A DNA stretch of 63,659 nt, the filler included, from Dimargaris cristalligena (lineage: Eukaryota), in the NCBI GenBank assembly GCA_003614675.1. It is 13 parts of 13 records of this genome, joined end to end, with 100 filler letters (N's around TTAATTAATTAA, not from the genome) between each part and the next. Parts side by side here need not be neighbours in the genome. Positions count along the whole stretch, not along the records: positions 39,410 to 44,218 come from ML003728.1; positions 44,319 to 49,090 come from ML003729.1; 11 more parts are not named here. One strand, written 5' to 3'. This document shows, piece after piece, positions 22,988-59,904 of this stretch; the first letter of the stretch is position 1, and every line of letters begins with the position of its first letter. The notes under the pieces are model-generated. The model did not search any database and was not told where the DNA came from. It worked only from the letters and a program-made list of their open reading frames with translations. The position numbers were made by a program, and so were the translations under genes.

Positions 22988-23173
22988 AATACAGCTGAAT
23001 TCTATCATCGGTAGCCATCACTTATCGTTCTACATGTTAGGTATGCTTTTCCAAACACACTGATTCCTACCAACATTCTCTCATATCATCTACCTACACG
23101 GTGATCTGTTCCCCTCCCTCTTTTTCTCTCGTCATAACTTTGTCCCCCTCCCTCACTTCCACCCTTGCCCAAT

Positions 23174-24455: not shown

Positions 24456-24539
24456 ATATGGGAGAAGTTCATCCAAGTTGTATAACGAAAAATCCATTAG
24501 ATTCGGCCAATATTACTAGTTAAAAATACATTTCCCATA
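24456..24539 (+). mobile_element. MITE copy cut by contig end
   Basis: Almost identical to 27513-27594. Confidence 0.8.
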
Positions 24540-29583: not shown

Positions 29584-29665
29584 GGGCAGATGGCCGAGTG
29601 GTCTAAGGCGCTACGTTAAGGCCGTAGTCTCTCCGGAGGCGTGGGTTCGAATCCCACTCTGCTCA
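29584..29665 (+). tRNA. tRNA-Leu(AAG)
   Basis: Acceptor GGGCAGA/TCTGCTC-A, D arm TGGCCGAGTGGTCTAAGGCG, anticodon arm CTACG-TTAAGGC-CGTAG, long variable arm, T arm GTGGG-TTCGAAT-CCCAC, followed by a T6 Pol III terminator. Confidence 0.97.
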
Positions 29666-29949
29666 CGTTTTTTGATTATTTTGTTTGATGACAACCTTTT
29701 CCTTAAATGATATGCACTTCAGTTGAACGATTATGAGAATAGCAGCATCTCAATATATAGGGTCTCTAGTTGTTGTTATGCCGGCGAATAAAGAAATCCC
29801 AGTTTTTATTAATAATATATCAAGAGGAAATAATCAGAGCCTACATTGTCTGGTGGCTTTACTGACTTAACTCATGGAAGTAGTTGAAGGGATTTTATCG
29901 AGTTGGTGTGTATGACTGTATAGAGCAGGTTAGTGAGAATGTAAAATAG

Positions 29950-30081
29950 CTATGGGAGATGTTCGACCAGGCTGTATAACGAAAATACCATCCAATTAGG
30001 AAAACATTACTTAATAAAAACCATTTTCCCATACACATATAGTTCAAAACCCTATACAGCTGCACTGAATTTCACCCCTAT
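29950..30081 (+). mobile_element. MITE copy
   Basis: TATGGGAGATGTTCGACCAGGCTGTATAACGAAAA...TATACAGCTGCACTGAATTTCACCCCTA. Confidence 0.8.
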
Positions 30082-33000
30082 TGGTTTTATCGGTTACGAT
30101 CATTTCCGAAATTATCTTTATAAGTGGCATATTCATTACCATCGACCCCAACAAAAGTATTCAGCGGCACCGCTAAAACTATGGGAAGAAAAGTCAGCCA
30201 CAGGCAAAATCCAGATCGATAGTAGATGTCGTTGGTGGTGAAGGACCCGTCGCTGGTGACAACGTGGTCACCTTAGACTTATAATTTCAGGTTTTGTAGT
30301 TCGTCTTTTAAGAAAAAAAACCATCGATTTTGCTCGTAAGACTGGTGCTAATAGCCCTAGGTGCGATCTCAAACAGAAGCCCAAGCCCGATTATGACACC
30401 TATTTTTTATAGCTACCATTCCTAAAGATTACATTGAAATAATATATATATAAAATATTCGAGGATATATTATTTAAGGGAATTATTTGTATATATCTTG
30501 GAGAAGGAAATAGTAAAAGTAAAGCAGAAACTAACCACGATTTCTCGTATACGCAAAGATTGATTTGGATCTAGGAGGTATATTCGACTTTCTCATATAG
30601 AAAAATCAATACCAATTATATTCACTGTTTAATCTCTCCTTTAGATACATTGTCGTCATAGTCTTCCCGCCGATTTCGCCTCCCAGTGGACACCGCCTTT
30701 ACGGGATAATCAAGAGATCAGGGCCTACTTCTCCCCATTTGGCAACATCACGCCAATTCTCCCTGACATAACTCTCTGTCACACACAGGGTTATCATACA
30801 AATATAGTTTACAGATGACTACAAAGCCTAAGAAGCTTCGAACAGAAAACCTCACTAATATAAACACAGGCCGATTAACTTTATGGTGTAGTTATTGGTT
30901 CTAGACCAATTTCGATCTATACAGGGAAGAGTATCATAATTAGGGACCACATAGCCCGAACACAGTGGATCATAGTCGACTGCCAAGTAGGTATACCTTA
31001 GAGTCATGATCAAACTGACAGTGCCAGCGGCCCAGTTATACATTTAGAAAAATGGCCTGGAATTTGACCAAAGCTGAAGTTGAACAGTGAGAATCACGAG
31101 TTTGCTGTTGGTGGCCAGTTTCTATAGGTATACCCACTATTATTCTTAAGATATCATTACACAATGTATAATTTTGGGGATAATGAAAGAATGGTGCCAA
31201 GAGCCGTCGAGTCAGGCGGATTTCCCCTAATATGGAATGTCTGTCTATAAATGGGCAAATGGCAATATGCAGTAATATTCATATTGCATAGCAACATGAA
31301 TCATTAATGGCAGAAGGCAGCTTTTGACATTCCGAAACAGTCCAAAATCCAGCAATGGCATTAAATCCTGCTGAATAGGGCTGTCTGTGGTTATATCTCG
31401 AAGGAACAACAACAATAACTTTATACATGGTCATTTTATCTTGATGAAGGGGGGGGGGGAGAATAGGAGGAATGTGACCAACAAGAAAATATCCATAAAT
31501 GAAAGAAACAAAGTTTGGAAGGGGGGAGGGGGGATAGTATGGTGTGCCTTGTTTTACATGAATCTAAGTTATTAGGACAATGTCAGTGGTACTCTTGACC
31601 GCTCTGGGCATGGGTGTGGTACCTATCAGGATAACGGGGTGCATCTACACACGGGGGAGGGTGCCCTCATTTATGAAATACTCATCTCTTTGGAATAAAC
31701 AGGCCCAGGACATCAGCACTAGTAAAGGTGCTAACCATGTAGCCTTCATATTGGGGCCTAGTTAGAAGGGCGAGCCCATTGTCAGGTCTGATCAGGAATA
31801 GACTGTACTATTGTTACTTAGTGTGCAAACTAAATCACATTTATTAATCCTACTGCTGTATTCCCTTTGTTGGTAAAGGGGATTCAGCATCAGAAGCAGA
31901 GCTATGGACAATAATGACTATTTGGGAGCGTAATGTCTGCCTTCCATATGGCCCAGGTCGGTGGCAAAGCCATGAGTTGACCTTCCCATATGAATTGTCC
32001 ACTGTAGTTTCTGCAGTGGGAATTTTTCGTTGGTTTTTGTTACACTGTTAGGATTAAGCGCCCATTTCCCTGGACTGGGTGATGTGTTTTCATCAGGTAT
32101 ATAACCTGTGGTATTTCCACCTCCTAAGTCTTTAACGACGAACACCATACTGCTGCAAATTCATAATAATATGGCATTTGTATCCTATTTTATATCCAAG
32201 AAGGGTCGGCCTAGTAGGGATTATCCTACTGCCGACCCGAGAGCACCAATTGTCAAGCCCATCAAGTGGGCATTCGATAAGGTAAGTATTGTATTTATTT
32301 TATTTATACTGTGAAATCTAGTTGGGCTGGCAATTGTATTTATACTCCTTCATTGATATATAATGATTTGAAGTATTATAAAAAACGCCGATTTCCCCTA
32401 TTTCATTATCAGACTTGACAATGGTTGCAGCAATAAAATTGTGGCGCCTCCATTCAATGCAAGTATAATGCCCGACTTTCATTATGCTGAATTATTAATG
32501 AATGACTTCCAAATGATATTCCAAGAAATCATTTTGGACTTACTGATTACTATGTAAGCCGATTTCTAACTATGTGCTTCTATGTTTGTTCCCTCTTTCC
32601 TATTATGATATCAATCTAGCTCAAGAAGATTTTTGGGCCACACAAATAAATGGCCCAACTGTGTCATTGGGATTCCCTTTGTCCCACCCCCATCCCTCTG
32701 CCTGTGACTTCACCAAGTCATCATGGCCAAGTTACCAGAGCCCACCCCCAACTACTCATCTTGACTTTTGGCCCAACCATGGTAGCTGTAACTACCCTGG
32801 GATATCCACTGCTTGTTACAGTTCTTTCTCACCGGCCCATACCCTGGCGTACTCTATAACACACCTTTTCTCCATCAGTTGATCAACCACTATCCTAGAG
32901 CTTGTTGGTACTGAACCACCAAGGGTTGCCTGGTAATAACCAGACATCCCATGAAACCGGGATTTAACTAGAAAACCACCAGCACCCACTCTTCCCATGG

Positions 33001-33629
33001 ATACCAAACCCCTAGATAATACCAAAAGAGTGCCGGCCAAGTGTAACCATATCACACTAACACTTGGCATATTGCTAAGAAGCCCTACTTGGCCCCTTAA
33101 GGGCACTGCAACCATGACCTCCTCTTAGAACACTAGCCTGATGGGCTAAATACCTACCACCTATGGCTAATCCTAATAGTAGTACTATCAGGTTCATTAA
33201 TTATTCTAGATTTAAAAAGAACCATTGACCTACACTAATAGAGGCCTTCAGTTGACTATAATTTTGCTTGCTTCCTATTACAATACAGTTACTGGTAATA
33301 TGTCACATACCCTGTTCACTAATTCAACTAATAAATAATTTTTCCTTAGTTACTTATACTCATATATACTCACTACCAACAACCTCATAGTTATAAGTAT
33401 TGGCCACCCAATATAAATTGTTGCAATAAACTTTCTCATGGCATCCTCAAAATATTTCTACAGCTAATTTTATAGCAATAAATCTTAATCCTAAAATATG
33501 GTCTTAATTTCTGAAGCAAAATATGCCCCCTTAGCCCTGTCTACCAGGAAATCTGCCACCATCTAAGCAGAAAAAGTACAAGAGTAGTAATGGTAGAAGG
33601 TGCCAACTAGACCAATATTGGGCTTAGTG

Positions 33630-34213
33630 GACCATCAGGCCTTCTAATCTAACTTAATCTGGACACAATACTGTCTATCCCTATTAGGCCTTATAGTGCC
33701 ATATAACCTTCCCATGGTTACCCCTGGTACTATGGGATCACCCTATATCATATAACCATTCCCCTTCCAGATTCCTTATTTTGCACTAATCACTCCAGTG
33801 CTAATCCTAAGACTCTTCTAGCTACTATCAGATTTTACCAAGAGCTTATGGCCATCTGGTTAGCCTATTTATCTTACCCTAGTCTTAGTAGTACCCTTTT
33901 CTGGCGACCTCCCTCTGGAGTTTTCCCTGTGTATATATAACTGGGCCACATTTTGACTGATTTGAGCCCTTAGCTTATTATTACCCCCTGTTTACCCCTA
34001 TAAACTCTATATATACTCACCACCCTTGTATCAACTAGTAAGTGTGCTTACTACACATCCCTGGCTTATACCTATATCTTATAGCCTTTATTAGTTAGTA
34101 CCATGTCCCCCACCTAGTACTAAGACCTGCTTGGCCAAGTCCAAGCCCCATCTGCCATTAAAAGCCTATCCTCAGGGCTCTTAATGGACTAAGAGTGGTT
34201 AACCTGGGTAACA
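33630..34213 (+). mobile_element. LTR family A, near full-length solo copy (~585 bp)
   Basis: Ends ...GGACTAAGAGTGGTTAACCTGGGTAACA, aligning with 20048; no internal retroelement ORF follows. Confidence 0.85.
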
Positions 34214-35643
34214 TTGACTTTACAAGGTTCATTTAAATTTCTTATTTATACTAACAAATAGTACCCAGCAAATCCACTATTTAGACAATCCTGTTACTGG
34301 GCTATCACTCTGGCAGATATGTTAATGTTGGAAACATCTTCTCACATTTGCCAGCCGCTCTTAGGGCTTTCAGCTGAGGGGGCTGCTATTATAATGNNNN
34401 NNNNNNNNNNNNNNNNNNNNNNNNNNNNNNNNNNNNNNNNTTAATTAATTAANNNNNNNNNNNNNNNNNNNNNNNNNNNNNNNNNNNNNNNNNNNNTCGC
34501 CGTTACCAAAGGTGCAAATACGTATGGGGATGGCATGGAGTAGAAATAGTGATGCACCACCACCACACGGGCGGCGGTGGTCCTTCTACTATTAAGATTC
34601 TTTTCGATCATTAGTTTCTTGTGGTTCCCCGGTATGATTAGGACAGTTCCGAAAATTACGGCCTAAAGAGGCGGTGGTTTTACCCACTTCTTCAATTATT
34701 AATCACCCAATGTGCTGGGTCGCAGAATTTTTGGGGTTGATTTTTCGTTTGGCAGGGGGCTTCTAGGGAGGGATCCCATATCTTTCCTTGGTCAGTTTAT
34801 TATAATATAAAAAAAGAATTGTGCTCTTTTTCACGCGTGTTGCTTAGAATGATAACCGCTGGTATTCATTTAACGGGGTTCATCCCCGAATTTCAAAAGC
34901 TCTGCATGATAGCAGACCGCAAGTTGAAGATTGGCAACGTGTTTTTGGGTGTCACACAATCCTCGGTGGCGGGAGACACGTATTCTCCCAAACTTTGACC
35001 GGACAATGGTCGCAACGACCCCTGTTGAAAAAAAACGGGAAGTTAATATGAAAATAGACAGTCAGCCAGTTGGTTGCAATGGCATCATTCTGACAGAGTG
35101 CCATTACTGAACGCCTTGGATGATCCGCTGCTGACTGGGCCATTTCAACAGGTAATAGGTGTTGCATTTTATATCGGGCTGTGGGAGCTATGCGGTGTCC
35201 CAAATTAAATATCTAGCTAGGACAGTTATCCACGTACGTACAGGGCGTACTTAGTATGGACTGTTTACTCAGGAGAACATAAACCTTGAAAGTGCTTATG
35301 TTGCTGGGAGGCGCTTGTGAGGTGGCCTATTCCAGTGAATGGGGCTATGGGAAACAATGTTGTTTGAAGTATTTTTAGATTAAGGGTTGGTGGCTCTGCG
35401 GTTGGTTTCTCCTTCCGATGCAATGATAAAAAAATTCCCCTAAAACCAAATTTGATTGTCTCATCTTTAAAAAGTATATATAGTTGCCAAAAGGGCGGAC
35501 AGAGGAGCATTCTTTAAGCCTTGGCCCTATTCCTCCTCTCTCAGATTGAATACCCGCTACTCCTATATTCTGATAACATTCGCCTATCGATATTTCCACG
35601 CCCAATCACTTACTTCCTTTCATCCAACGTTTACAGTTCACCC

Positions 35644-43235: not shown

Positions 43236-44319
43236 TATGTTAATACAGTGGGCTCCCAATGGAGACTATACCAAAATCACCAATAAAAGGAATATGATAT
43301 AGTTAAAGGGCAGTGGCAGCACGGTCATTAAAAAACTGGAGGGGTATAGGCTAATAGTTTACAGTGGTATTACGCTGCAACCCACTACAGACCATGGTGT
43401 TTGTATTCCTGTCAAGTGTAAAATGGGGAGAAGACTATCGGCACCACTGCCATATTTCGTTAATTTATTGAGATGAAGAATATGGTATGTTTATCCTAGA
43501 GTTGTGTTGCAGGCCATCGTTGTCACTGAACCGGGCAGGGAAAACCACTTGTCGAGTGGAACTTTGACTAGACAATGAAAGAAGCCGACATTGTTAAATC
43601 CCCAAGCAATGCAAATTTACTATCCACCTCATTTTTCTCAAAGCTGACTGACATTCCAGGGAATTCTGGCCAAAGGTAAAAGTTGAGTGTCCCTTGGTAT
43701 CTATAAGTTGCTCAGTCCTTCTTTTGTCTGGCTCATTTGCCAAAATTTCGCCCACCCCTTTAGTCCCTGGTGATCCGATAATTGAACCAAACCCCAGTTG
43801 AGATATGTATTGTCCTTACCCAGTGACCTTTAAACTACACTGGATTATAAAATATCAATGAATTAGATTCATAAACTGCAAAAATGAACTAAAAAAATAT
43901 AGCATCGATTATTCCCCAGGAGTTACCCACCTCAGTACTAAATCAACTGATCAGAGCTTATCTTCACAGATCCAACATGATACAGAGCATATTCTGACAT
44001 ATGGCCATCTCTTTTGTTGTTACAATATTGGGCAATATAAATAGTAATAAAATATAAATATAAAAGAATTAATACCCTCGGGTACTCAAAAGTAACTAAA
44101 GCATAATCAAACTTCCGCAGAAGTGCTATCTGGTGAATTCTTTAGCCTCGACTAAAAAGTTATTTTATTAATAAGATATTACACTGAGTATTTATACTAA
44201 AACTCAGGGATTATAAATNNNNNNNNNNNNNNNNNNNNNNNNNNNNNNNNNNNNNNNNNNNNTTAATTAATTAANNNNNNNNNNNNNNNNNNNNNNNNNN
44301 NNNNNNNNNNNNNNNNNNC

Positions 44320-45054
44320 ATCTCTTTTGTCTCGTCTGCACCTTCAAAAAACAACTCCTCAACAAATGCGTCGAATTGTTCAAAACATTGCAACTCCAGA
44401 TGTGATCGCCTTTCCTAAAAATGCCAATTCTTCAACCAAAAATCTTTTAGTTTTTAACGACATGTCGAACGACAGTTTATGGATCAATTCATCTATCCAG
44501 TCATCAATAAAAGAACAAATTATGAATTTACAAAGCACAGTTTTTAGACAATTCGTGTTGTGGTTCGCACGAATTATCCCATGTGCTCGTGTTCTAGTTC
44601 GCTCGACTTATCCCACCAATGTTTTTCAGTCTTTATCGCGTCTGTTGTTTCTTTTTTGTATTTAAGAAAATATCGATATCTTTCTATTTATATGTATTGT
44701 TCAAATAGAAATAGAAATAAATCACGAATGTTGCAGTCTGAATTTTTAGGTTCATGTATTTCATTTTTTCCAATGAGATGCTTTCGCAACACTCCTTCGC
44801 ATTCACAAATTCCGTTGGTCATTGCCACCTCCGATCCTACTAGACATGACCCCATGTATGTTTGCAAAAAAGATGATTATTCTGAATCTTTTGTTTACGC
44901 AAAATGACCAATATGCATCGATTTAATAACAAAGCCGACCTGTTTCGTCGACTGCGGACACGTAGGTTGCGCAAAATGTTTTCAAAAACTGTCAAAACTT
45001 CGTGAATGTCCTGTTTGCTGGACACATGGCTCAACCATAAAACTGTTTTTTTAA
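44320..45054 (+). pseudogene. C3HC4 RING-finger protein with a possible N-terminal zinc-deaminase domain, disrupted
   Basis: Frame 1 ends K*PICIDLITKPTCFVDCGHVGCAKCFQKLSKLRECPVCWTHGSTIKLFF*; TGA at 44905 occupies RING Cys1; further in-frame stops at 44416, 44455, 44545. Confidence 0.75.
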
Positions 45055-45203
45055 TGGATGTTTTTGTAAATAAGATCAAGGAAAATCGTTTGAGATGTTC
45101 TTTTCTTTCTTATAATCTTCATCTATGAAAGTTTTCAATATTTTTCAATACCACTTACAAAACTTTATAGAAACTTATAGAACTTTATAAAACTGAATAC
45201 AAA

Positions 45204-46083
45204 TCATATGCTCTCAAAAACAACACTCGATGTAAAAGCGGACAAAAACGAGTCAAGAAGGAAAGGAGTCTTGTCCATCTGTTGAAGATAGTAGTTTGCA
45301 TTAAAAATATTCTGGTATGTTATTAGATCGGGAACATCTGCGGGGTTATTATAGAGCAGAGGATATTGTGGACCAAGAATGTCTACAATCGCCGGCAAAG
45401 AGTTGATAACTATTGGAGTATTACGCGCAATGCACTCTAACAATGTGTTAATCGCAGCCGCATCAACCATGTCTAGAAAGACGACATTTTGGGACAACAA
45501 TTGATCATAGTCATCATCAGACAATTTGTTTGTTTTCGTTGGTGAAAAAGTTTCTCATTGCAAAGTTGTTGTCCACAAACTCTGTTGGATGAACCAATGC
45601 TACCACTGGTATGTTTGGAAAACCTCAGTTTGTCAGTTCGCATGTCCACCTTAATTGGAACTCATTGGAAAACACAAACAATCCTTTACAAGTTGGCAAT
45701 GATGATAAAAATTTCGGATTTTTCAAAAGATTCACGTTATTGTACTCTGAAAAAGTTGTATTGAACGTGTGGTGGTTAAAACCAATCCATGGAACTGTGT
45801 AAGGAATGAGAGGTGGGTTTAACCAATGAAATGTTCGGTCGATATATGTATCACACCAAATTTCATTGTCATCTTGCAATTGCTCCAATCCACTCATAAC
45901 ATACGGCCATCCACTTCGATGAAATCCTTGAAGGTAACTAACTTGATCCATGAATTTCAAATTTATTCCAACAGGAAATGCCATAATGTTAACGGTCTTC
46001 TTTCCTTATTGGTCCGAAAAGAAATCATGCACTATACGCGATCCCTGCGTTTTACATCCTTTTAGTATATGTGTGTTTGTCAT
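45204..46083 (-). pseudogene. Glycosyltransferase-like protein of a type I recall from giant viruses, disrupted
   Basis: FHRSGWPYV, PWIGFNHHT, CKGLFVFS, HPTE, YDQLLSQNVVFLDMVDAAAINTLLECIARNTPIVIN.LPA....LG..YPL; in-frame TGA at 45625, frameshift near 45520; start is either 46083 (with a TAA at 46006) or 45984. Confidence 0.65.
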
Positions 46084-46866
46084 TTACTCATATGCGGCTT
46101 CACCGATGACATTTCCAGGCGGTGAATATTCACATGCGTAAATTACGTTACTTAATAGTCCGTTTTCCGCTGCACAGCAACCAATTGATTTTGTTGTAGG
46201 CCAAACCATCTGTGTATAATGTCCAAATCTTTCGAAATTTGTAGTGTTAAATATTTCACCTGGCGAATAAAATTGAACTTCGTTGGCCCAATCTTCAATG
46301 GCAGATGAAAGATTAAACAATATTGGCGCTGTTCCCGCAATCTTGTAGAGATTCTCCCCGTATGGTCCACCGCTGTGCTTGAATGTGTTCATTTCGATCA
46401 AAAACAAAGTATAATTACATGCTTATTGTTCCAATAGTAAATCATAAGAAAGTGCAGCATGTTTTTGTGTCGCGGGAACATTCGCGCGGATCAAATTATG
46501 AAGAGCTAGAGCTGCAAGCCGATCAGATTGTGAGCTTGCCAAATGTGAAATGTTATCAAACGCTAATGTTGGGGACGGTCTTATCTTTGATAGTAAAGTT
46601 GAAGATGGACAAGCTTTAAACGTATGGTGTTTTTTTGTCGACGTTTTCTCTTTAGAATGCTTAACCGTTGTTTTACATTTTGAATGTTTTGTCTCCCTGT
46701 CAACTTCATAATCATGACAGTTTTTCCCAAAATTGCGATATTGGTTCACACATAAAAAATGTTCCTCTTCGTTGTGTTGCCATTTCTCAGAAAAACTTGC
46801 ATTTGTGGTGATAGTTAAGTATATTGTGTAAAAAAATAATACATTCGCAATAAATGTTTTCAACAT
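46084..46866 (-). pseudogene. Secreted CAP/SCP/PR-1 family protein with one in-frame stop
   Basis: Signal peptide; LALHNLIRA...LSYDLLLEQ*A...FKHSGGPYGENL...W..E...Y...GHYTQMVWPTTKSIGC...YACEYSPPGN; TAA at 46423. Confidence 0.88.
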
Positions 46867-46937
46867 ATTTACTGTTAAGATAAGTAAGTATAACCAGAAC
46901 TCTTTTATACAAATTATTTTGAATAGGTATAAAACCG

Positions 46938-47593
46938 TTTATCGATAAAAACTTTTAACATTAATATTCAATTTATGGGTGTCAACGTTCAACGAATGTG
47001 AACATCTTTTGCATTTGTGTTATTTTTATGTGATAATATTTGTTTATTGATCAAACGTTTTTCAAAGTGCATTTTGCAATCTCATCCAAAAAAACTAAGA
47101 GAATTCAAGAAAAAACACTGAGCTCGTACATAATTGGAATGTTGAAAAATTTAAATGTTTAAAAGATCGATTACTCGGTATGTTGAAAATTTGTTTATCG
47201 ATAAAACAGATTCGGATTGTTCAAGAAATTGAATTTCAAAATGTTGAACATCTTTTTATCGATTAAGCAGATTCGTAATATTGAATCTCGAAGAATTGAC
47301 GAAATGTTGAAGAAATTGAATGTTCGTAAATAATTAATACAGAAGATCTTGTATCTTGTCATGTCAAAGTAATAGACATAAATCGGTAGTAATTATTCGA
47401 TGACCGCAATCACATTTCTTGAACCGATCCTGTTCGACGAACAAAATCATAATCAATAAACAAAATTATAATCATATTCTATAAACAAAATTAGATAAGA
47501 TTGATACACAAAATTATGATCATAATCCATCAATGGTCATATTCGATTAAATTGCACATGTTTTTGAATATTCGATAATTGTTTATCGATAAA
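46938..47593. repeat. Dispersed palindrome TTTATCGATAAA and degenerate ~60-bp tandem repeats
   Basis: Exact at 46938, 47194, 47582; variants at 47043 and 47255. Confidence 0.85.
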
Positions 47594-47622
47594 ACATTTT
47601 CATATCGTATTTTGCAGTATCA

Positions 47623-49090
47623 TCAATTTGCAACCATAAACACATATCCGGATGCACCTGCTGCAGCCGCTGATGCAGAACCAACACTAGTCCCTGCTGA
47701 ACCACCGTTAGCAGTTACTGTTATCGCAGAAGATATTCCTTTGTAAATAACTATTGCAGCACCACCCCCTCCTCCTCCTCCTCCTCCGCACGACAGATTT
47801 GTTGTGGAACCTGTATAAGTCGCCGACGATCCATTTCCTCCGTTGGCTGTGATAGACCCAGTTCCGTTAATTACGTTTGCACATACTATCACGACGCCTC
47901 CACCTCCGCCGCCAGCTCCTGTTGAAATTGTCGTGGCCAACCCCAATGCAGCATAACCACTGCCTCCTCCTGAACCTCCTTGAATGTAACAATCTGTGTT
48001 AGAGTCTGGATTGGTATCGATAGACTGAAATCTTCCGTCAAGATAAGTTGGCATCATCGAAAATACGTACGGTCCACCATCAACAGCGGAAATTGAAATT
48101 ATTGTCCCACGAGCTCCGGGTGTCGTTCCCCCACCAGAACCCCCAACTCCTCCTAGACAAAAGTAAGTCACTGCGTTTGTCCCCGCTGTTCCATTTCCAG
48201 CCGTTGTCCTGCCAGCACCACCGACCGTACCGGGTCCTAAAAACGTCGCCCCTGCTGTGATTCCAGAAGTACCACCTGTGGTTCATGTTGTATTTCCACC
48301 ATTTGCCGATATAGAACCATTCAAAGTTAATGTTCCTGAACAGACGATTCTCCAGCCACCAGTAGTCAATGTAACACCACTGTTGATTGTCAAATTTGAA
48401 TAATACATATTTCTCCCCAACGTTGTATTTGAAGATATGACAACAGCTCCATCCGGCGAGGCGCCGATCCCTGGAAAAGAGACGGTAGGTATCGTTTCAG
48501 TCAACTTTACAACAATCAATGCACCCGAACCAGTAGAAGTCAAAGTCACGCACGAAAAATTTCCAATCAAAATAATCGTGGAACTGCTGTTTATCAACTC
48601 TCCGGACGCTGCGGCTATGGTCAAAGTATTCACATCTGTTGATATCTTTGTAAGAAGATAAGTTCGTCCTGTTGCTCCTGTTGCTGTTGGCAAAGTCACG
48701 GTAAATGCTCCACCTGAAGTGTTGCATGATATTATGTAATCTGTTTGTTGCACTGTGTAAGCCGCGGAGACAGATGTTACATTATGTGTCATACTGCCGT
48801 TGGCGACACTCAAATTTCCACCCACAAATACAGAACCTGTCATTCCAGCACCGCCAGAAACAATCAAAGCACCCGTTGCAGTGGACGTTGATGCCGTAGT
48901 GTTCAGCAAGCTTGCAGATGCAGCTGTAATATTGTTATTGACTCCTAGGCCTCCTGAAATTACCACTGCTCCTGTGGATAAAGAAGTTGAATTAGCGGTC
49001 CCCAAACACGAAATCTTGCCATCTGCCCTCCATTTTGCCACAATAGTGTTCGGATCGCCAGAAAGTGTTGTTCCATTGTTTAATCCCGAC
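47623..49090 (-). pseudogene. Gly/Thr/Ser-rich virion fibre-like protein, 5' truncated, one in-frame stop
   Basis: Repeats STSLSTGAVVISGGLGV and STSTATGALIVSGGAGM; YTVQQTDYIISCNTSGGAFTVTLP module; glycine-rich C-terminus; TGA at 48283 with the frame continuing TTGGTSGITAG... Confidence 0.8.
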
Positions 49091-49493
49091 NNNNNNNNNN
49101 NNNNNNNNNNNNNNNNNNNNNNNNNNNNNNNNNNTTAATTAATTAANNNNNNNNNNNNNNNNNNNNNNNNNNNNNNNNNNNNNNNNNNNNTCTTAGCAGA
49201 CTAAGAGTAGTTTACCTTGGTAATAAACTCTAAACTTATTATATATGCCCCAAACTACCACATTAAAGCAGCCATACTCCCTTTTCTTTTCGGATTCCTT
49301 CAAAAACTTAATTTTCTAACTGATTCTAAAAACATAAAATATAGGTTATCAATAGCCACCAAGCCATTGAAGTTCACGCATTTCACAATACTATAATTAT
49401 TTTTGATAAAACTTTAACTATCTTCATTAATATTTTCCTAGCCCTTTAGCAATTTTATTTTCGTGTTTCCGATGATACTATTCAGCATATATC

Positions 49494-50500
49494 ATGAGTT
49501 CTAACACTCCCGAGGCCATCCTATCGGTATCATCAAGTATCATCAAACCTGTCAAGTCGGGCCCCTTTATTGTGCCGCCGAAGTAGCCTAAACAAACCGC
49601 CAAAGTCGCTTTGCAGATCCCTAAGTCTATTACTTTGAAGGCGGAGTCATCCAGCTATAAAACCATACCCTAGCTGATCAACCGGGCCACCAAACCGGTT
49701 GTGCCTGAATAGGTATTTTTGCCTTCAGAAACATTATGTGAGGGGACTGCGACTTCAATGAATTGAAATACACTAAAGGCCAACCAGCCTAACCTTTCTA
49801 AAATACTTCCAAAAACTAGTCCGTCTCTGCCATCGAAAAACTAAATGGTTTCCTGGTAATTACCATTAGGCGTGAGCGGCAACAGCGAATCGGTCCTGTT
49901 TAGCCCGATTGTGTGCATGGCCAACTTAACGGATGAAGTCATTCTCATTGATGGTCAAGATATTTGCCGAGTGGCCTAGGGTGATTTACGCTCCCAGATC
50001 GCGTACATCAACCAGTCCTTTGTGACTTTCCTGGGCACTATTTACTACAATATCGCCTATGGTGCTGTCAACCGGGGCGAGTTAGCCTCTATAGACGAGG
50101 TGGTGGAGGCGGCCAAAGCCGTTAACTTATATGATACGATCATGGGGCGCGAGGATGGCTTTGACGCCAAACTCGATGGGAGTGGCAACAAGATGAGCGG
50201 TGGCGAGTTGCAGCGCATGGGAATTGCGCGGGCCCTGGTAAAAAAGTCACTCATCTTACTTTTGGATGAGGCCACGGCCGCCCTGGATACCGCCACTGAA
50301 ACGAAGATCATGGACTACATTCGTAACTCTAAGGAGTCGCGAACGACTGTTACAATCGCCCATAGGATTTCGACTATTATGGATGCCGACCAGATTGTGG
50401 TCCTGGGACACGGCAGGGTGGCCGAGCTTGGCATACATAATGAATTAGTGGCCAAGGGCGGCATTTATGCCGAAATGTGGGCCAATACCCAGATTAACAA
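49494..50500 (+). pseudogene. ABCB-type (ATM1/HMT1/MDR-like) ABC transporter nucleotide-binding-domain pseudogene fragment
   Basis: ILIDGQDICRVA*GDLRSQIAYINQ, MSGGELQRMGIARAL, LLLDEATAALD, IAHRIST; Walker A degenerate, no transmembrane domain, in-frame TAG at 49977. Confidence 0.85.
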
Positions 50501-51499
50501 TATAATATTTATATTTTTGCAAAAACAATCTCCTCAAGTTCATTGGCTATGCCTATACCTTTCATTTTTATTTGTATTATATATATATATTGATAATATG
50601 AGAGAGGCCCAGTCCAGCTGTATAATGCATATTGCACTTAGAAAAATCGACTGCAGAGGTTAAAAAGAACCCCGTGGCCTATTTTGGACTCTATATTTTA
50701 AACTTAACACTATCCATTTTTGTTGGATCTAAAGGTATAAGTTTTGGCTTTTATGGATGCGATGTAGGGTTACTTATATATTGACTGATGTTTTAACTTC
50801 TCCGACAGGCGCTGCACCCAAGATACATCCTTCAACAACTCAAATGTTTCCAGGAAACATACACCTCGTTAGGAAGACAGTGTACAAGAACCCCATTAGT
50901 GTGGTTAAGATAAAGGGAATCCTTCATGGATTACTGAGAATTGAAGGTTCAAAGGTTATGTGCATGAGGTGGGTGAATATTTTAGCTGGAAGAATGACCC
51001 TTGTTGTCATTTGAATGACGGCAATAAAATGTAAGGGGCAAAAAGGCTAGCTGATTCTCTCCTGTGTATAATATTCACTATAAGACATTCATGAATATAA
51101 GAAGGATAGGATATCCATTTCTAAATAGGTCCAACTAATTCGAAGCCTTTTATGCAAAGAGTAACAATGAATCTTTTATATATACGTCATGAATTGCTAT
51201 CTTTTATAACTGTAAAATGATAAAGTTAAGTGTATAATCACTGAGAAGTTGAAAAGAGAGACCAGCATAAATAAGGGAATGCAAAAATCATGTTACTGCA
51301 CAGGGGTGGAATTTTGTACAGTTGTATGAGGCTTTAAATGATATGGGTATGTGATAATAGGCAGGATATTTAGGAGAGAAATTCAATTGGGCTGTATTAT
51401 AGTATATAGCTAAGAGGGACTTGGGGACTGGAGGAGAGCTACCATGTGTGGATATAAGGGGGGGGGGGTTTGGGGGTCATATATAATAAGTTTAGAGTT

Positions 51500-52088
51500 T
51501 ATTACCAAGGTAAACTACTCTTAGTCTGCTAAGAGTCCCAAGGATAGGCTTTTAATAGTAGGTGAGGCTTAGACTTAGCCAAGTGGACTATTAGCATCAG
51601 GTATAGGGTAAAGTACTAACTAATAAAAGCTAAGTGGTAATTATATATAAGGGATATGCAGTAGTTATACTTACTAGTAAATATGGGTGGAGTAAATATA
51701 TATAGTATTTATTAGGAGAAAATTAAGAGTTGGAATATATTAAGGAATCCAACTGGTCCCACTAGGGCCCAGTTATATATATATAAGGACAACTCCAGAG
51801 GGAGGTCCTAAGGGAAGGATACCACTAAGGCTAGGGTATAGGTAAAAAGGCTAACCAGATAACTGTTAGTATCTGGAAGACTCTGCTGGTAACTGGAAGA
51901 GTTTAATGGATAAGCACTTAAGTAATAAGTGTATGTAAGTAAAGTCTAGAAGGGAAAGGGTTATATAATAAATGATAATCCCGTAGTACTGGGGGTGACT
52001 ATGGGAAGGCTTATATAGTACTATAATGCCTTATATAGTCAGATGTCTAAGCCAGTGGGATTAAGGCAGATAAAATAGTCCAATAATT
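51500..52088 (-). mobile_element. LTR family A solo copy, heavily mutated (terminal TG changed to TA)
   Basis: Colinear with 39896-40485 along its length. Confidence 0.85.
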
Positions 52089-52425
52089 ATATAGCTAAGT
52101 GTAAAAAAAAGGGAGATAATTATTAAGATATATCAGGGTGGAGAGTTAAAGGGAGTATCCCATTGACTAGAAATTTGCAAGGTAGTAATTTTTTTTGCCC
52201 CACTAGAAGTAATGGTTCTTTTTTAAGATGTAGATATCATTTCATATAGGATGTTTCCGTAAGTTAGACTGATAAGTTCAAGTTAGAAATAATATGCATA
52301 ATTAGTTATAGTTCAACTAATTACCAACAGTGCTTTTGTAGTAAGGCCATACTGACTTCCTCTGATGTCCTTCACTGCAACTCAATGAATACATATCAGC
52401 TCAATACAATGGTACTAGACCATTA

Positions 52426-52568
52426 ATATGAGAGAGGTTTAGTACAGCTGCATAATGGAAAATATATTAAGTATGGCTGGCACTTCTAGTTGAATAGAAA
52501 TACACAACCTATTTGACCATACACGTTATTTAAGATCCTATATAGCTTGGCTAATTTTCACCTATATA
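52426..52568 (+). mobile_element. Diverged MITE copy
   Basis: ATATGAGAGAGGTT...CAGCTGCATAA...CCATACACG...TATATAGCTTGGCTAATTTTCACCTATAT. Confidence 0.65.
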
Positions 52569-53866
52569 GTACAAGGGAATTCACCAGTAGGAAAACCTAA
52601 TAATTGGGCAGTTTTAGATGGTGGGAGGGGGGCTGGCCGTGAACATAAAAATTATAACTATCGACAATAGTTGAAAATAGGGCTGTAGTATGCATGCTGA
52701 ATAGGACCCAATGAGGCCAAATAGCCATAGTGCCCATTGAATCGGGGTGGTAACTGTTCGGTGTTTGCATGGCGGAGGTGATTACCAAGCTGTGTACTGA
52801 GTAAGACATTCCCATTAATAAAACTAAGTGACATCCCGAGTACTGGGGTGGCCAGAATTGTCTGGTGGCTACAGAGCGAATTGGAGAAAAGAAAGGAATA
52901 GGGAAAATGGAAAATAGTGAGAGCTGCACAAGGTACAGCTTCTCATGTTATTTATTATGCCTTTAAGGGCTGACTATACATGCAAAGTGTGGGATGGTGT
53001 GAAAGTGCCGGTTTACCATCTGATTGCAAGCTGTTATAGCAGCACTATATGTTCAACTGTATTTGTGAGATAGGAAGAGTTCACAGCCGCTGCCCTCAAA
53101 TAATCTCCAGGGGGCTATAGTTCGGCTATCACGGAAGGTGCAGTTTGCAAAGGACACTTAGTGACTTGTATAGAAGAACGAAAGCTGCGAAATGGCAATA
53201 TTTAACCCCCACTGAATACAGGCGGGGGCCGGGTAATACTAGCCACAATAGTGCTCAATCCCAGTCCCAGTATAATCAGTGCTCCAAGCCACTCTTGTTC
53301 TATATGGTTGGTCATAACCAAGTGCAGGTACCTAGAATGGGCTATCAGAGGATACTATGGCCAGAGGAAACATATTTAGAGCTGTCTTACGGCACACTTC
53401 AACAGAAACTTTATTCCCACAAACACCCCCAATTCCAGATGAAACGATTACACTTAAAATAATAAGGCAGATTGACAATATAGAATATTATCCGTATTCC
53501 CATCAAATATGAAGTTAGGGCCCTCTTCCATTGTTCTCCAAAACAGCTGTAGTGTTTGGAAGATGCATCGCCCCTTAATAGCTATATTAACCATATGCCA
53601 ACCGCTCTTGACATTGTGCTAGCCGACCAATATATAGCCAACCCCTACGCCTGGCCCTTTCATGAATGCATTACTCGGTGTTCTTCGTCCACCCATCCCT
53701 ACCTATTTCCATTGCTTGACTACCAATCTAAACATTCGAATCCTTCTACATATCTACCTATTCTTTACCACTGGTGCCCTCAAGTAGCACCCTTCAAGTA
53801 TCTTACACAGTTCGTTAAATGTGCCCCTAATCCTAACCATGGCCCTGCATATTCTTTGGACGGCTC

Positions 53867-53952
53867 TATATGGGTGAAGTTCAGCTTGGTTGTATAAGGT
53901 TTTAACCAATATGTGTATGGGAAAATCGGTGGGATGTTTATTTTCAACCAGT
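53867..53952 (-). mobile_element. MITE copy cut by contig end
   Basis: TATATGGGTGAAGTTCAGCTTGGTTGTATAAGG...GTGTATGGGAAAAT. Confidence 0.75.
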
Positions 53953-55275
53953 NNNNNNNNNNNNNNNNNNNNNNNNNNNNNNNNNNNNNNNNNNNNTTAA
54001 TTAATTAANNNNNNNNNNNNNNNNNNNNNNNNNNNNNNNNNNNNNNNNNNNNTCGGTCGGGCCATGTCCGGCCCTTATACCTTCTCTTTGATTGTGCCGT
54101 ACTTTTATTTTTTGCTATTTTATACAAATACCATCGGTAGGGTAAAATGGGGAGTAATCGTCGTCCCTTCTAGATCCTCTATTATTCCCCTGTCTGCATA
54201 CCAATGCAGCCCCTCTTGCCCCCATTGTTCGTAACTTAGTCGTTCTTCGTTATTTAAAATCTAAACCAGTGTCTCATTATCAGGCCTGGTTGTCAAATTC
54301 GTTTTGGAAAAGACCATCTCACTCGTGAACCGCCGTTTAGTATTCAGCTGTGACTCTATTATCATTCGGCCATTTACTTCCCTTTTAGGGACCACTTCCA
54401 TTTTCTACTTTATTAATTACTTTGGTTTCCCATACTATCAATACAATGATACATTACTTACAAGTAGGTGCTGCTGACAGTGAATAATGGGAGCCCTTGA
54501 ATAAGTGGAGTTGAGTAAGGTGATTGTAAACTATCACTCGATACTTGAGCTGCCTTCTGCTCCAATAATTGATCTGCCATTAGCTAATAGGCAATTTTTA
54601 AAAAATCTCGGAGTTAACCCCAGTCTCCCCGCTAGTAGTTAGGACTCTTTAAATTATTATATAAAAATGCGCTTGACATTACATTTATCAATTGTCCTGT
54701 TGGTGTTAAATATGAATCGAGACACATGTTCGTTTTTTTAGAAACATGTTGCAAGTCGCGAGGATTGAATAAAGCTGGATGTTGTACTAATTCCATGTAT
54801 CCTGTACACACGTTTAAATAGTTAATTCATTTAGCATAACGCGCTAAATAAACTAGCGTAGATATAATTTTTTTAGCGTTTAAATCAGACCCCACTCTGC
54901 CATCTCTGCCTTGCAATCTTGGGCATTTCTGTGCCAGTCAACGCCACCCCCCTTCTAGATAGTATTGTGGTGGAAGCGTACTATACCCTCGTTGACTCTT
55001 CCGAATCTTGGAAAATCTCTTGCGCTGAAATAATCAGGCCAAATTACTTCCAAAATATATCCAACGCGACTTTATGAAGGACTCCGCGTAGTATCCTCTG
55101 TAAAGACACGCTTTTCTCCTACCCTTATTAAATTAGCGCTCGCACCTTAAGGCATTGGTCCACAGCGCCTCACCTGTACTACTATCCGAATCCAAATGGT
55201 GGTTTAATTAGCGGTTTCTCACATACTCCTCTATTGATTCCTTGGGTTTGTTTCCTTCCTTTGTGTTTGTCCGCC

Positions 55276-56421
55276 ATGTTCTTCCTTGTAAGTGACTCTG
55301 GCATTCCGACGGGCTCCTCTGAATCCATGTTCGCCCAGATGTACCCTTCCGGTCCGCTGGGTTACTATAAGTCCGTTACTCCCCGCGACCCGTCATTATG
55401 GGTCATTCAGGGCCTGCCATTCATCCACCTGCCTTTTTTTTTCTCACATTCATACATACACTTTGGCCCTCCCATAGAAAAAGCTCAAGCACACCATCAC
55501 ACTCCATCCCCGGTTCTTCGGGCCGGAAATGGAGGATTTCGTCAAGACTAAGCTCTACCAGGATGTCGAAGGGACTTGCACGGGGCGTTACGGGTACGTC
55601 ATCACGGTGGTGGAGGTGATTAAAATCAGCAAGGGTCGGCTGATTTCCGGACTGGGCTCCGCCGAATTCGAGGTGGAGTACCAGGCCATCGTGTTCAAAC
55701 CTTTCAAATACGAAGTACTGGATGGTATCGTGAAGAATGTCAGCAAAATGGGCTTCTTCGTGGATGTGGGCCCCCTGGTGGTCTTTGTGTCGAGTCACGC
55801 TATGCCCAGCGATATGAAATTCGACTCAACCGCTAATCCGCCCTGCTTCCAGTCCGATGAACAGGTAAATACAACATGAATTCCTTTAGGTTTGCTTTAT
55901 AAACCTGTTGTGAATACGATGCTTCGTCGCTTAGACATTGCAACCTATAAGGGTGCGAACTCTGCTTGTTGGAGTCCATGTCCAAGTTCTTAACCGGCAG
56001 CCCGCTTTTATATCCCTTGAATATCCCGGCCTTTCTAACCTCTCGTGTGAATGTGTTCTTTGGTACTTATGTTACTATATCCCTAGACTATTGATAAGGG
56101 CGCCCTGGTGCGGCTAAAAATCATGGGTTTAAAGATGGAACCGAACGACATTGTAAGTTTTTTTTTACTAACCATTGACCTGTAACCGAGGACCAATAAC
56201 TAATACTATAACTCCGGCTCATGAAGTGATCCTATTTCCCCTATGATTATAACCAAACATTCGGGAATACTCATGTCGTATAGAATGGCGCGATAATTAT
56301 TTACACATGTATTGACACCGCCTGTTCAAACCCCCACTATATCTCAACCTGACCTACCAATACCATCCAGCGGGCCATTGGCACGATCAAGGAGGACTAT
56401 TTGGGTATGATTGGTCATTAA
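55276..56421 (+). CDS. RPB7: RNA polymerase II subunit RPB7; exons 55276-55287, 55478-55864, 56087-56152, 56371-56421
   Basis: MFFL|KKLKHTITLHPRFFGP...VEGTCTGRYGYVI...FKPFKYEVLDG.V..V.KMGFF..VGPL.VFVSSH...AIGTIKEDYLG. Confidence 0.97.
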
Positions 56422-56757
56422 CCGGTGCGAAGCTGCCTGTCTGGATCATTTAGCTACCGTACCCACCACCGTTTACCTAGGAAATGGCTAGTCAGCGATT
56501 CAACCGGAATGACATTTTAGCCATATAGCTATATATCTCTCAATTATGCGTACATTATTTTTAGTCCAGCCCAACCGCTTTGCGGTCTTTTTTTTTTCTA
56601 ATTGATTCCCGTGAAAAGAATATCCCGTAGAATTATTTCTATGTTTACATTAATCTATAAATACACCAACTTTTGCCAATCGTAAACTTCGATAGAGAAC
56701 CGTGGTCTATTGTCAGGAATGGTTGCACACATGGATTGTGCCAAATTTTCCCTTTCT

Positions 56758-58320
56758 TTAGTACCCGAGGTGCTGTTTACGGAGTTCTTTGGCAGCCCGG
56801 CGGATCTGGACCCACTCAGCTGAGACGGCTGGTACGACGGCGGGGTCGTCGATCCAAGCAGCAATGGCATCCTTATAAGCAACCTCTTTTGCTTCAAAAA
56901 GGTGGCGCTGGCCACCTTCTTCCAGACCCTGGATTTCTTGGTGGTACAAGCGCCGCATGATGGTTTCTTCTGGAAGTAGTGTTTGGCCGGCGTAGACACT
57001 AGCCACCAAATGGCCCTGATAATAAGCCATGGGAAAGGGGGCAATTCGGGACATTAAGGACAGGAAACACAATGTTGGGATGGGTAGATAGAACAGCTGG
57101 AAAAACAGGTTGTGCACTTGGCGACCGGAAGTGATTAGAGTTGTCTCCGGTGAAGGATGGGGCAGCTTCTCCTGCTGGTGGTGGTCGGACTGGCTATGCC
57201 CCCAAGGGCGTGGGGGATCGTACAACTGGGGTAAAAATGGAACTGAATAGAGATAGCCGGTGGCAAACACCACCACATCCGGCAACGGGATTGAGCGCCC
57301 GTCGGCGAATCGGACCCTACGGTTGTCGGGGTCAAATCCGACTAGAGCCGCACAGGGAACGAAGGGGGCACGTTGGGCCACACCGTCGGACTCCTGCGCC
57401 TGTTGAGCGTCAAACTGATCAACCGAGAATATCTGGTCGGCGTTTCGAGTGGAGTGGTATACTTGACGGGCGAAGGGCAGGATTTCTCGGATGATATCAT
57501 GCCCAGACGGACCACCCCCGATGACCAGGACAGTGCGATCGGAGGCAGTGGTGGAGGCTAGTTTATACTGGCGGGAGTGAATTAATTGGCAATGGGAATC
57601 ATTCTGGGCCACTTCACGGAGGCCGGGAAGATCAGGAACGTAGGGGACGTTAAAGTGGCCCGTACAGACCACGACAGCGTCGAATTGCTCAGTCCGCGTG
57701 GTGGGAGTTGAGTGTGATGACGTGGCCGCAACCGCAGTGGCTGTGGTTGCGAGCTCACAGTGCCATGTTTGAATAGTTTCCGTCCACTCCAGAAGGATCG
57801 CCCGAGTATTAAACTCAATTAGGCTACCCAAGTCTTTGTCATGTACATAAGTCCGTAGATATTGGAGAACGGCTGAATGATGGGGAAAGTCCGGTACTTG
57901 ATTAGAAAACGGCTGATCCGGGAAACACATGACATTGGTGGGTAGGTTGGTGTGTAAGTCGTGGTAAATATTACCTACAAAGCAGTCGTTCTTGGAGGTA
58001 GGGGTATCGGGTGTGGGCCCGTAGGGGTCAACCGATGGAAACGTGACGCTGTCGTCCACTTGGTCGGAGTAGTTCCAGGTCCCCCCGGGGTGGGAGTTTT
58101 GTTCAAACACTTGAATGGTTGTAAACGGCTCAGGTTGGCCCTGTTGCTGGGCCCGCTGGTTCGCCTCACGTAGGGCGAAGGCACAAGCCAACCCAGTGGG
58201 TCCGGCACCAATAATGGCGACCCGGCGTATAGGGTGCGGCCACCGGTACGGTAGGGCCCGGCAGGTGTTACGGAACGTCGGTAAGTGGGCCTGGAACTCT
58301 TCATAAAAGGACGGTGACAT
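56758..58320 (-). CDS. Flavin-containing monooxygenase (FMO1-like)
   Basis: VAIIGAGPTG, FEQ....GGTW, Y..L.TNLP..VM.F.D.PF, DAVVVCTGH, IHSRQYK, VIGGGPSG.D, ATGY. Confidence 0.93.
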   Translation of the reverse strand: MSPSFYEEFQAHLPTFRNTCRALPYRWPHPIRRVAIIGAGPTGLACAFALREANQRAQQQGQPEPFTTIQVFEQNSHPGGTWNYSDQVDDSVTFPSVDPYGPTPDTPTSKNDCFVGNIYHDLHTNLPTNVMCFPDQPFSNQVPDFPHHSAVLQYLRTYVHDKDLGSLIEFNTRAILLEWTETIQTWHCELATTATAVAATSSHSTPTTRTEQFDAVVVCTGHFNVPYVPDLPGLREVAQNDSHCQLIHSRQYKLASTTASDRTVLVIGGGPSGHDIIREILPFARQVYHSTRNADQIFSVDQFDAQQAQESDGVAQRAPFVPCAALVGFDPDNRRVRFADGRSIPLPDVVVFATGYLYSVPFLPQLYDPPRPWGHSQSDHHQQEKLPHPSPETTLITSGRQVHNLFFQLFYLPIPTLCFLSLMSRIAPFPMAYYQGHLVASVYAGQTLLPEETIMRRLYHQEIQGLEEGGQRHLFEAKEVAYKDAIAAWIDDPAVVPAVSAEWVQIRRAAKELRKQHLGY

Positions 58321-59904
58321 AGGGCTGGCTGGATAGAGGAATAGAAGGGGGGAGAGTTAAGCGGCTGGGCCAGTGGTGGAATATACAGTTCGAGTTGAGA
58401 AGAGTCGCAATGGCAATGGGCTGACCTAAGGAACTTTGGCAGTCAAAAGGGATACTGGATATAATAAGGTAGCGTGCTTCAGGGAGAGCTGAGCGGAGGT
58501 CGGGGGAACTTGAGGGGGGGCTTCGTGCACCTTGTTTAGTTGCCCTAATAACTAAAAAGTCCTTACTCCCTGCCCCTCAAAATGTAGGAGGCACACCACC
58601 TTTCGGCGGGACCTGGCTCTGAACCTTAGAGAGTGACAGAATAGAGGAGAGAGGGACCCATCTCGTTGATTCTCTCACCTCCCTTACTCACCCCATCATC
58701 AACTGACTGGTTGGTCGATTGGTCTGATAAAAAGATATATAGATAGCCAGAGAAGAGAGGGGAGGGGCTGCGTGGTTAATCCTCACCAGCGGCGACGTAT
58801 TTCGGGTTCATAGTNNNNNNNNNNNNNNNNNNNNNNNNNNNNNNNNNNNNNNNNNNNNTTAATTAATTAANNNNNNNNNNNNNNNNNNNNNNNNNNNNNN
58901 NNNNNNNNNNNNNNACAAGTCGCAGAGTCCCAATCCACAATACCGGCTAATTTATTAATAAAAGGGGTATAATTGCCAGCATTTAGTACTATTGGTGGGG
59001 TGATATCTATCAGATGGTACCAATGCTGTTTTGCTTCACATTTCGTCTTCGCCCGCTGTTTATGGAACTAGTATGTTAAATTCTCTTTTATAAGTTTTGA
59101 CAGCCGTTCATTTTTGAATGAATATCATCACCATTTCTCATTGTAAGACACTGGGCACGGTGTTGGTTTTTGGATCGGATATTAATTGGCAATAGCTCAA
59201 AGGAATAGGGACGGCGGCTCAATGTTGACCCAGGTACACAGGATAAGGCCAGTGTGGGGAGAAGAGTTCGTAGTGCGCTCGATTACTTGGTCCTCCCCTA
59301 GTGGATCCATTTCGCGTATACTACCATTACAACTCCAGTCAACCCAAACTAACAGCGCCCCTGGTTTAATGTGGTACCGGGCCATTGACGCTCAGCCCCG
59401 TGTCTGATTAATGCCACAACAAATCGGGGCCAGCCCCTTTCTGTCGTGCGTTATGCCCACTATTCTATTTAAACGTAAGTCCCGCTGTTCAATCTATTCG
59501 CTAGTTTGTCAAAATACTGATTTTTCTCGCTGATTTGGAGTTGGCCCGTAGTCAATCCTAGTTTACAAAGGCGCCCTTTAACAACTAATAATGTCTATTC
59601 ACTCCTATAAATCATACAGCCTGCCTGCCTCGTTCTCGCCAGTTTCACATTAGCTATTCCGTAATATATTCGAATTTCATTAGCCTAGTTTAGTATACTA
59701 TCACTCCATTGGTTTCATCCCAGTGGTCCCTGACTCTATTATCGCACCAAATACATTCTCTTTGGCTAGTCTCAATATTCTTCAGCCTCCTACTATAATT
59801 ATTTTACCAATTAAATATACTCCACCAAGGTCCACCCGGCGTCTACATACCCCCTGAACCCCGAACCATCAGGCAACGGAGCCAGTGTACTTGGCCTTAC
59901 TTAC

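Follow-up and report, generated by a model that had tools for sequence, protein, structure and literature searches.

Giant-virus DNA in fungi is a new topic. The closest described cases are the endogenous or latent sequences of the Mycodnaviridae, i.e. low-GC, intronless, virus-like DNA in assemblies of early-diverging fungi; the contigs concerned are mosaics of viral, bacterial and fungal genes, and some of them are taken as 'viral fossils' (PMC13533422, cited here and below from its accessible part). In that study Dimargaris cristalligena accounts for the single capsid hit in a non-zoosporic fungus among 2,543 MycoCosm genomes, and the discussion counts the Zoopagomycota among three fungal phyla with evidence of giant viruses. 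The string 'contamina...' has 0 occurrences in its main text, and neither Blyttiomyces nor Dimargaris is mentioned in the readable supplements (six supplementary files, possibly including S1 Fig, were unreadable). Here we describe a 4772 bp contig (positions 44319-49090) from a stretch of 63,659 bases of the D. cristalligena assembly GCA_003614675.1 (the window, i.e. the whole stretch of DNA that was analysed). The contig resembles the Mycodnaviridae cases in composition, in lacking introns and in its virus-like content, but it is only 4.8 kb long, has no capsid, polymerase or other core gene, and every one of its genes is broken; moreover, data from public sequencing runs point to another library as its source. 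We regard it, with a probability of about 0.5, as a decayed giant-virus-type fragment that reached the Dimargaris assembly through library carry-over.

A likeness exists also to cross-sample carry-over in amplified single-cell projects: the identical sequence occurs under three labels in three studies at depths two to three orders apart, and the window contig is a compositional outlier of its assembly. D. cristalligena and Blyttiomyces helicus were sequenced in one single-cell project and pipeline, and the reference of the former is a co-assembly of amplified single- and multi-cell libraries (PMC6784888, PMC8042348, both as far as accessible); the B. helicus samples contained DNA of numerous non-target species (PMC6784888). 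In the accessible part of a preprint, Blyttiomyces is among the fungal genera named alongside giant-virus genomes called fungi-infecting (10.64898/2026.09.08.750034).

Composition and decay of the contig

The window comprises 13 contigs of 4.7-4.9 kb with N spacers between them, and the finding concerns exactly one of these. (The joiners between contigs consist of N(44), 12 bases with GC 0.0 and again N(44), e.g. around the island at 4794-4805 and 11 others, and are artificial.) Its features are as follows:

44319-44853, no strand: unassigned left end, with a 114-codon frame (plus strand, 44321-44662) that is open at the contig edge
44854-45054, plus strand: RING gene (~66 codons; zf-C3HC4_2) with an in-frame TGA at 44905-44907
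45204-45984, minus strand: glycosyltransferase (GT)-like pseudogene with an HRSGW motif, a TGA at 45625-45627 and a frame change at 45520/45521, delimited by tblastn of five intact homologues (~400 aa)
46084-46866, minus strand: CAP/PR-1 superfamily gene (PF00188) with a hydrophobic N-terminus and an in-frame TAA at 46423-46425
46867-47622, no strand: spacer between the fibre-like and CAP genes (756 bp), AT-rich, with four copies of a palindrome
47623-49090, minus strand: fibre-like gene, its 5' end off the contig, with an in-frame TGA at 48283-48285 and ending in TGA TGA at 47620-47625

Within the window this contig is foreign in composition. Its observed/expected ratio (o/e) of CpG is 1.03, compared with 0.41-0.72 in the six other contigs with GC ≤0.45, and its TpA o/e is 0.64, compared with 1.03-1.17 in the same six; its tetranucleotide correlation with them amounts to 0.43-0.57, against 0.82-0.92 among those six themselves. 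An earlier note on this DNA had called the contig unlike all others, AT-rich and intronless. The first of these statements is borne out by CpG, TpA and tetranucleotides, and the third by the genes themselves, which need no introns because their alignments to homologues are collinear. The second is correct as a description (GC 0.38) but not as a distinction, five other contigs lying at GC 0.40-0.42. The AT-rich host contigs at 4850-9704, 19700-24539, 29578-34396 and 49191-53952 have a CpG o/e of 0.41-0.53, from which the virus-like contig differs. On the remaining contigs the long frames are for fungal proteins of ordinary kinds, namely a Sec7 protein, an SPB4-type DEAD-box helicase, a non-ribosomal peptide synthetase (NRPS) module and a flavin monooxygenase; the monooxygenase frame, on 54053-58814, is 95% identical over 98% of the frame (introns ignored) to D. 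cristalligena BJ085DRAFT_24203.

All four genes were recognised by homology or Pfam as the fibre-like, RING, HRSGW glycosyltransferase-like and CAP genes that had been proposed, and together they carry five lesions, i.e. four in-frame stops plus the deletion with frame change in the GT-like gene. Each of the five lesions is covered by contigs of three public runs (X1, X2 and X4, introduced below), which read as the window does at all of them; their sole differences are at 44847, 45348, 47200 and 47525. As they recur in these runs, the stops, which the earlier note had reported in all four genes, are not errors of this assembly. The lesions are plain decay. Every gene is inactivated by a nonsense mutation, the GT-like gene having lost about 150 codons besides, and none of the four products is likely to function. 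Hypermutation of the repeat-induced point mutation (RIP) type, or through CpG methylation, was considered as a cause of the stops and rejected, because CpG is not depleted and TpA is scarce (CpG o/e 1.03, TpA o/e 0.64, TpA/ApT 0.64), a dinucleotide pattern opposite to that of the AT-rich host contigs.

Relatives of the four genes

The GT-like gene has the nearest relatives in giant viruses. In tblastn the intact homologue P0150 (411 aa) aligns in two parts, residues 4-153 and residues 307-411, which meet directly at 45520/45521 but in different frames, so that about 150 codons have been deleted; the frameshift read earlier from the sequence is thus real as a frame change and part of a larger loss. 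The in-frame TGA aligns with an Arg of P0150. The letters TAAATG, taken to be the CAP stop abutting the next ATG, are present at 46086-46081, but this ATG opens a frame of merely 25 codons, and the GT start supported by homology is the ATG at 45984, about 100 nt downstream.

A search with the N-terminal part of the GT found 1279 relatives among 1.84 billion representatives. The best of these are stand-alone proteins of about 400 aa (55-61% identical), and many others have 800-900 aa; all four long relatives that were scanned have an N-terminal polysaccharide pyruvyl transferase domain (PF04230). On giant-virus metagenome contigs (L005:2264-4771, L007:8711-11152) the HRSGW GT-B likewise is often the C-terminal half of an 800-900 aa protein with PF04230 at the N-terminus, and this fusion suggests a two-step glycan-decorating enzyme of undescribed function. 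The fourth-best of the 1279 relatives, P0153 (57% identity), is encoded letter for letter on GVMAG-M-3300015360-128. In IMG/VR, 116 stretches were confirmed to encode GT relatives; 35 of the 79 loci listed are GVMAG-named, and several others lie on contigs of 200-900 kb. The products of neighbouring genes on the loci L002, L005 and L007 include PCNA, a fusion of dihydrofolate reductase (DHFR) and thymidylate synthase, an Erv1 oxidase with a Mimivirus R596-like C-domain, a GT41-TPR protein, ankyrin proteins and leucine-rich repeat (LRR) proteins. These findings support the view that the HRSGW GT-B family is abundant on giant-virus metagenome contigs.

By its structural model, the family is predicted to have a GT-B fold with two Rossmann-like halves: the AlphaFold model of P0150 (mean pLDDT 76) matches GT-B enzymes such as SenB, BshA, SdgB and WaaG, with 130 chains at E ≤0.001 and TM up to 0.65. 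A sequence search of the PDB with the GT profile returned SenB-type enzymes only (E 0.1-0.4), and no Pfam or NCBIfam model matched the family. The window copy agrees with this family in the N-terminal part (in tblastn 55% identity with the protein of L002; 61% with the closest relative) and in the C-terminal part (47-53% identical to homologues), and it retains the HRSGW and W[IV]GF.HH motifs. As differences, it has a premature TGA and no pyruvyl-transferase fusion, and it is without residues ~154-306, i.e. the end of the first Rossmann-like half and the start of the second, so that this copy no longer corresponds to a complete GT-B enzyme.

The fibre-like protein has Ser/Thr/Gly repeats in its N-terminal part, then a conserved core (NMYYSNLTINSGVTL..GWRI..GTLTLNG), and at the C-terminus a module rich in Gly. 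Its closest relative is BDK51DRAFT_42173 (P0003) of Blyttiomyces helicus (79% identity, 96% query coverage), in which an Arg aligns with the in-frame TGA of the window gene. Compared with window positions 47626-49089, the B. helicus model leaves out the 21 residues that are best conserved in the family and carries Arg where Gly is conserved, and thus looks like a further decayed copy, patched by gene prediction. Four metagenome proteins come next (39-47%), along with one from Chytriomyces hyalinus (46%, over half of the query). With the fibre homologue P0006 as query, a metagenome scan missed the contig of P0006 itself and gave two weak matches only, both to the N-terminal repeats (L082 and L083), and an IMG/VR scan a single weak match (L081); a PDB sequence search with the fibre profile returned spurious low-complexity matches only (E ≥0.028).

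Other parts of the fibre-like protein lead to tailed phages. The C-terminal module resembles phrog_13336 (E 1.1e-6), and a 53-residue core, used for the IMG/VR scan as the full alignment gave matches dominated by glycine runs, is encoded by 206 IMG/VR stretches. Proteins of the phrog_13336 type from tail-fibre regions (e.g. L001:9911-10972), which in the sampled loci adjoin tail-fibre, baseplate or other virion structural genes, have the conserved core and the Gly-rich C-terminal module in common with the window protein. They differ from it in the N-terminal part, which in the window protein is longer and of another kind, with STS..TGA..V.GG repeats, and is common only to two proteins from chytrid assemblies and a few metagenome proteins. 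A phrog_2928 gene ('tryptophan halogenase') is found some 2 kb downstream of the gene with the fibre core in five of the seven phage loci sampled (L085, L089, L092, L129, L138), a neighbourhood conserved among those loci. In BFVD the AlphaFold fibre model is matched best by collagen-like proteins from Pandoravirus dulcis and Orpheovirus, together with proteins from uncultured tailed phages (TM ~0.4; 24-29% identity in the top four); because the model is poor (mean pLDDT 57), these fold matches are weak evidence. The relatives nevertheless support the assignment of the protein to a viral fibre type shared with phages.

The CAP and RING genes are recognised by Pfam. The CAP gene scores 42.2 bits against PF00188 (gathering score 21.1), and the motifs HSGG.YGENL and HYTQ.VW align; the in-frame TAA, which sits in a variable alignment column next to an invariant Ala and upstream of HSGGPYGENL, cuts the frame before both. 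Its BLASTP relatives are bacterial, fungal or unnamed and at most 39% identical, except one at 45% over 37% of the query. The RING gene reaches 31 bits against zf-C3HC4_2 (cut-off 27). Its residue 17 corresponds to profile position 2 in four profiles, which places the TGA at position 1, the first zinc-binding Cys; the domain is therefore short of one of the eight C3HC4 ligands and otherwise recognised. One weak tblastn match to the RING gene adjoins a GVMAG GT locus (E 5.6e-4).

In summary, the nearest relatives are found in giant-virus contigs for the GT, in chytrid assemblies and metagenomes for the fibre, and in tailed phages for the fibre core, with none among viruses for CAP. Taken together, the gene set appears virus-flavoured, one gene leading clearly to giant viruses and one being of a viral fibre type, the other two being uninformative. 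The viral reading of the earlier note is borne out by the GT family and the fibre, but not by CAP or by the fibre core, which lies mainly in tail regions of tailed phages. None of the 163 loci fetched contains both a GT and a fibre relative, and an IMG/VR search with the window's own fibre and GT pieces found no close relatives. As a reading of the DNA itself, the contig is probably a decaying giant-virus-like fragment, judged by its gene families only.

The remaining parts of the contig are the left end and the spacer. In the former, the 114-codon frame 44321-44662 matched 0 Pfam families at E up to 1 and had no tblastx match in the 163 fetched loci; tRNA and Rfam searches gave no match. In the spacer, the palindrome TTTATCGATAAA occurs at 46938-46949, 47194-47205, 47255-47266 (with one mismatch) and 47582-47593, three copies being exact. 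All four matches in the 63.7-kb window lie inside this spacer; 0.31 are expected, and 0 of 100 shuffles reach four. One copy is situated about 30 nt past the fibre stop and another about 70 nt ahead of the CAP start, and the palindrome may serve the source genome as promoter, terminator or protein-binding repeat.

Occurrence in public runs and competing origins

The stretch was traced in a public-run index, which gives shares of sampled words; organisms A, B and C denote three labels in three studies. Four runs of organism A hold it with word shares of 0.89-0.96. One of the three listed runs of organism B holds it (share 0.93), the other two having 0.00, and one run of organism C contains traces (share 0.14); RNA runs holding the stretch are not listed in the index. 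Along the contig, the organism A runs X1 and X2 have a Logan word depth of 1,280-9,425, compared with 0.29-11.7 for the organism B run X4 and 0-3.1 for X6 of organism C; this measure is not copy number and is very uneven in amplified single-cell libraries. The sequence is thus at least ~110 times deeper in the organism A runs than in the organism B run.

The run contigs also differ in their extent. Those of X1 and X2 continue 194 and 488 nt past the left end, and that of X4 stops exactly at 44319; at 47200, X4 and the window have G, and X1 and X2 have A. Because it has the left end and the G at 47200 in common with X4, the window contig seems to derive from organism B data. The extensions at both contig ends are shared with organism A runs, and the contig contains no host sequence. 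X1 in addition contains pieces with 91-93% likeness (records 6 and 7), as well as a spacer variant in which 47092-47631 (540 bases) are replaced by 40 other letters, and therefore sister copies exist in the X1 sample. It looks as if the window contig had been assembled from low-depth data of the organism B type, the sequence being at home in organism A libraries. Vertical inheritance is excluded, because identical, non-conserved and pseudogene-laden DNA of 4.8 kb occurs under three labels; carry-over between libraries is the simplest account, and its direction is likely that from A to B.

We therefore return to the reading proposed at the outset. The contig would be dead giant-virus-type DNA with genes for a GT-B glycosyltransferase, a secreted CAP protein, a small RING protein and a structural protein of the fibre kind, decayed through nonsense mutations in all four genes and the deletion of about 150 codons in the GT. 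It would not belong to the D. cristalligena genome and would have entered the amplified co-assembly of D. cristalligena as low-level carry-over from another organism's libraries in the same pipeline, in which the sequence is at least ~110 times commoner and has a longer flank and diverged sister copies. Where it really belongs, the sequence could be a viral relic that was endogenised and is present in several copies. A farther-reaching version is possible, and we offer it tentatively: several decaying copies of a relic of an undescribed giant-virus lineage would reside in the genome behind the high-depth libraries, and the virus-like DNA of Dimargaris, the capsid hit possibly included, would be carry-over.

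Several observations weigh against this reading. With regard to viral ancestry, none of the hallmark genes looked for (MCP, PolB, A32 ATPase, VLTF3, D5 primase-helicase) is on the contig, and Pfam scans of its sizeable frames gave CAP and RING only; CAP has no viral relatives among its BLASTP matches, and the fibre model is poor. GVMAG names are absent from the 80 fibre-core loci listed from IMG/VR (0/80), and the seven sampled all have phage head, tail or tail-fibre, or baseplate genes, as does L001; tailed phages carry the fibre core module more widely than giant viruses do. With regard to carry-over, word depth has the limits given above, and absence from two of the three listed organism B runs is compatible with incomplete genome recovery; carry-over is no more than likely. 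Furthermore, the libraries were prepared to exclude plate-based cross-contamination, and tetramer outliers were removed (PMC6784888, in its accessible part), filters that the window contig would have escaped.

The main rival, which we consider unlikely, is that the contig is non-viral, pseudogene-rich DNA of a cellular organism, i.e. a chytrid or other microbial eukaryote in the organism A sample, brought in by the same carry-over. Full-length fibre relatives are indeed annotated in the assemblies of B. helicus and C. hyalinus, the families CAP and RING are nothing unusual in eukaryotes, the contig is without a hallmark gene, and the several diverged copies in X1 are what a cellular repeat family would give. 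Against this stand the intronless and closely spaced genes, the identifiable GT relatives on giant-virus contigs and a fibre module that is otherwise viral. Chytrid assemblies, including that of C. hyalinus, moreover hold mosaic viral regions (PMC13533422), and because of these the 'fungal' fibre homologues may themselves be viral insertions.

Less probable still is a giant-virus relic integrated in the genome of D. cristalligena. In its favour, the contig is part of the public assembly, and one organism B run has it with an identical left end; the NCLDV capsid hit (PMC13533422) indicates other virus-like DNA in the assembly; and decayed genes are expected of an old insertion. The depth of 0.3-12 in X4, as opposed to 1,280-9,425 in two runs of another label, argues against it, as do the absence of the sequence from two of the three listed organism B runs and its occurrence under a third label, which is inexplicable by vertical inheritance. 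Nor does the contig show a junction with host DNA, by which an endogenous element would be recognised; its CpG o/e of 1.03 is foreign to the AT-rich host contigs (0.41-0.72), and the paralogues and longer flanks are in organism A, not B.

For the claims of the earlier note this has several consequences. Its statement that no host junction or hallmark gene is visible proved correct. D. cristalligena, the host that it implied, is doubtful in view of the depth ratio, the single organism B run among three and the third-label traces. Recent integration does not fit a fragment in which all four genes are broken, one of them by a large deletion, and integration as such has neither a junction nor a hallmark gene in its support. 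The note had named placement in a contaminant by depth and linkage as grounds for giving up its view; the depth pattern comes close to this, short of proof.

Two further alternatives concern the lesions alone. It is very improbable that a live virus or organism reads the stops as sense, through an alternative code or read-through, with its genes intact. Each gene does have an in-frame stop, and in three of the four it is TGA; however, the residues opposite the TGAs are not the same throughout (Arg for the fibre, Arg for the GT, the first Cys for the RING), the TAA of CAP falls in a variable column, and no code mends the loss of ~150 codons from the GT, including parts of both Rossmann-like halves. 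An alternative genetic code was rejected, one stop not being tied to one residue and TGA and TAA also terminating these genes. Finally, errors of assembly or amplification in a contig of low coverage can practically be dismissed as the source of the stops and the frameshift: although the window copy comes from low-depth data (X4 depth 0.3-12) and its base at 44847 differs from all three covering runs, X1 and X2, with depths in the thousands, and likewise X4 agree with the window at the five lesions, and only four other positions differ.

Meaning for giant viruses in fungi

The fragment is dead DNA, and its value is that of a provenance marker; as evidence that D. cristalligena ever had such a virus it is weak. 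It also points to a fibre protein family common to chytrid-associated sequences and phages, and to a GT-B family, as yet uncharacterised, that giant viruses commonly have. Because at least one virus-like piece of the assembly is far commoner in libraries of another label, the Dimargaris record needs re-examination by read depth and linkage before it is used for questions of host range or evolution. If the capsid-bearing Dimargaris contig has the same depth pattern, the record of giant viruses in Zoopagomycota would fall; and if carry-over does include the capsid hit, giant viruses in fungi would again be known from zoosporic hosts only.

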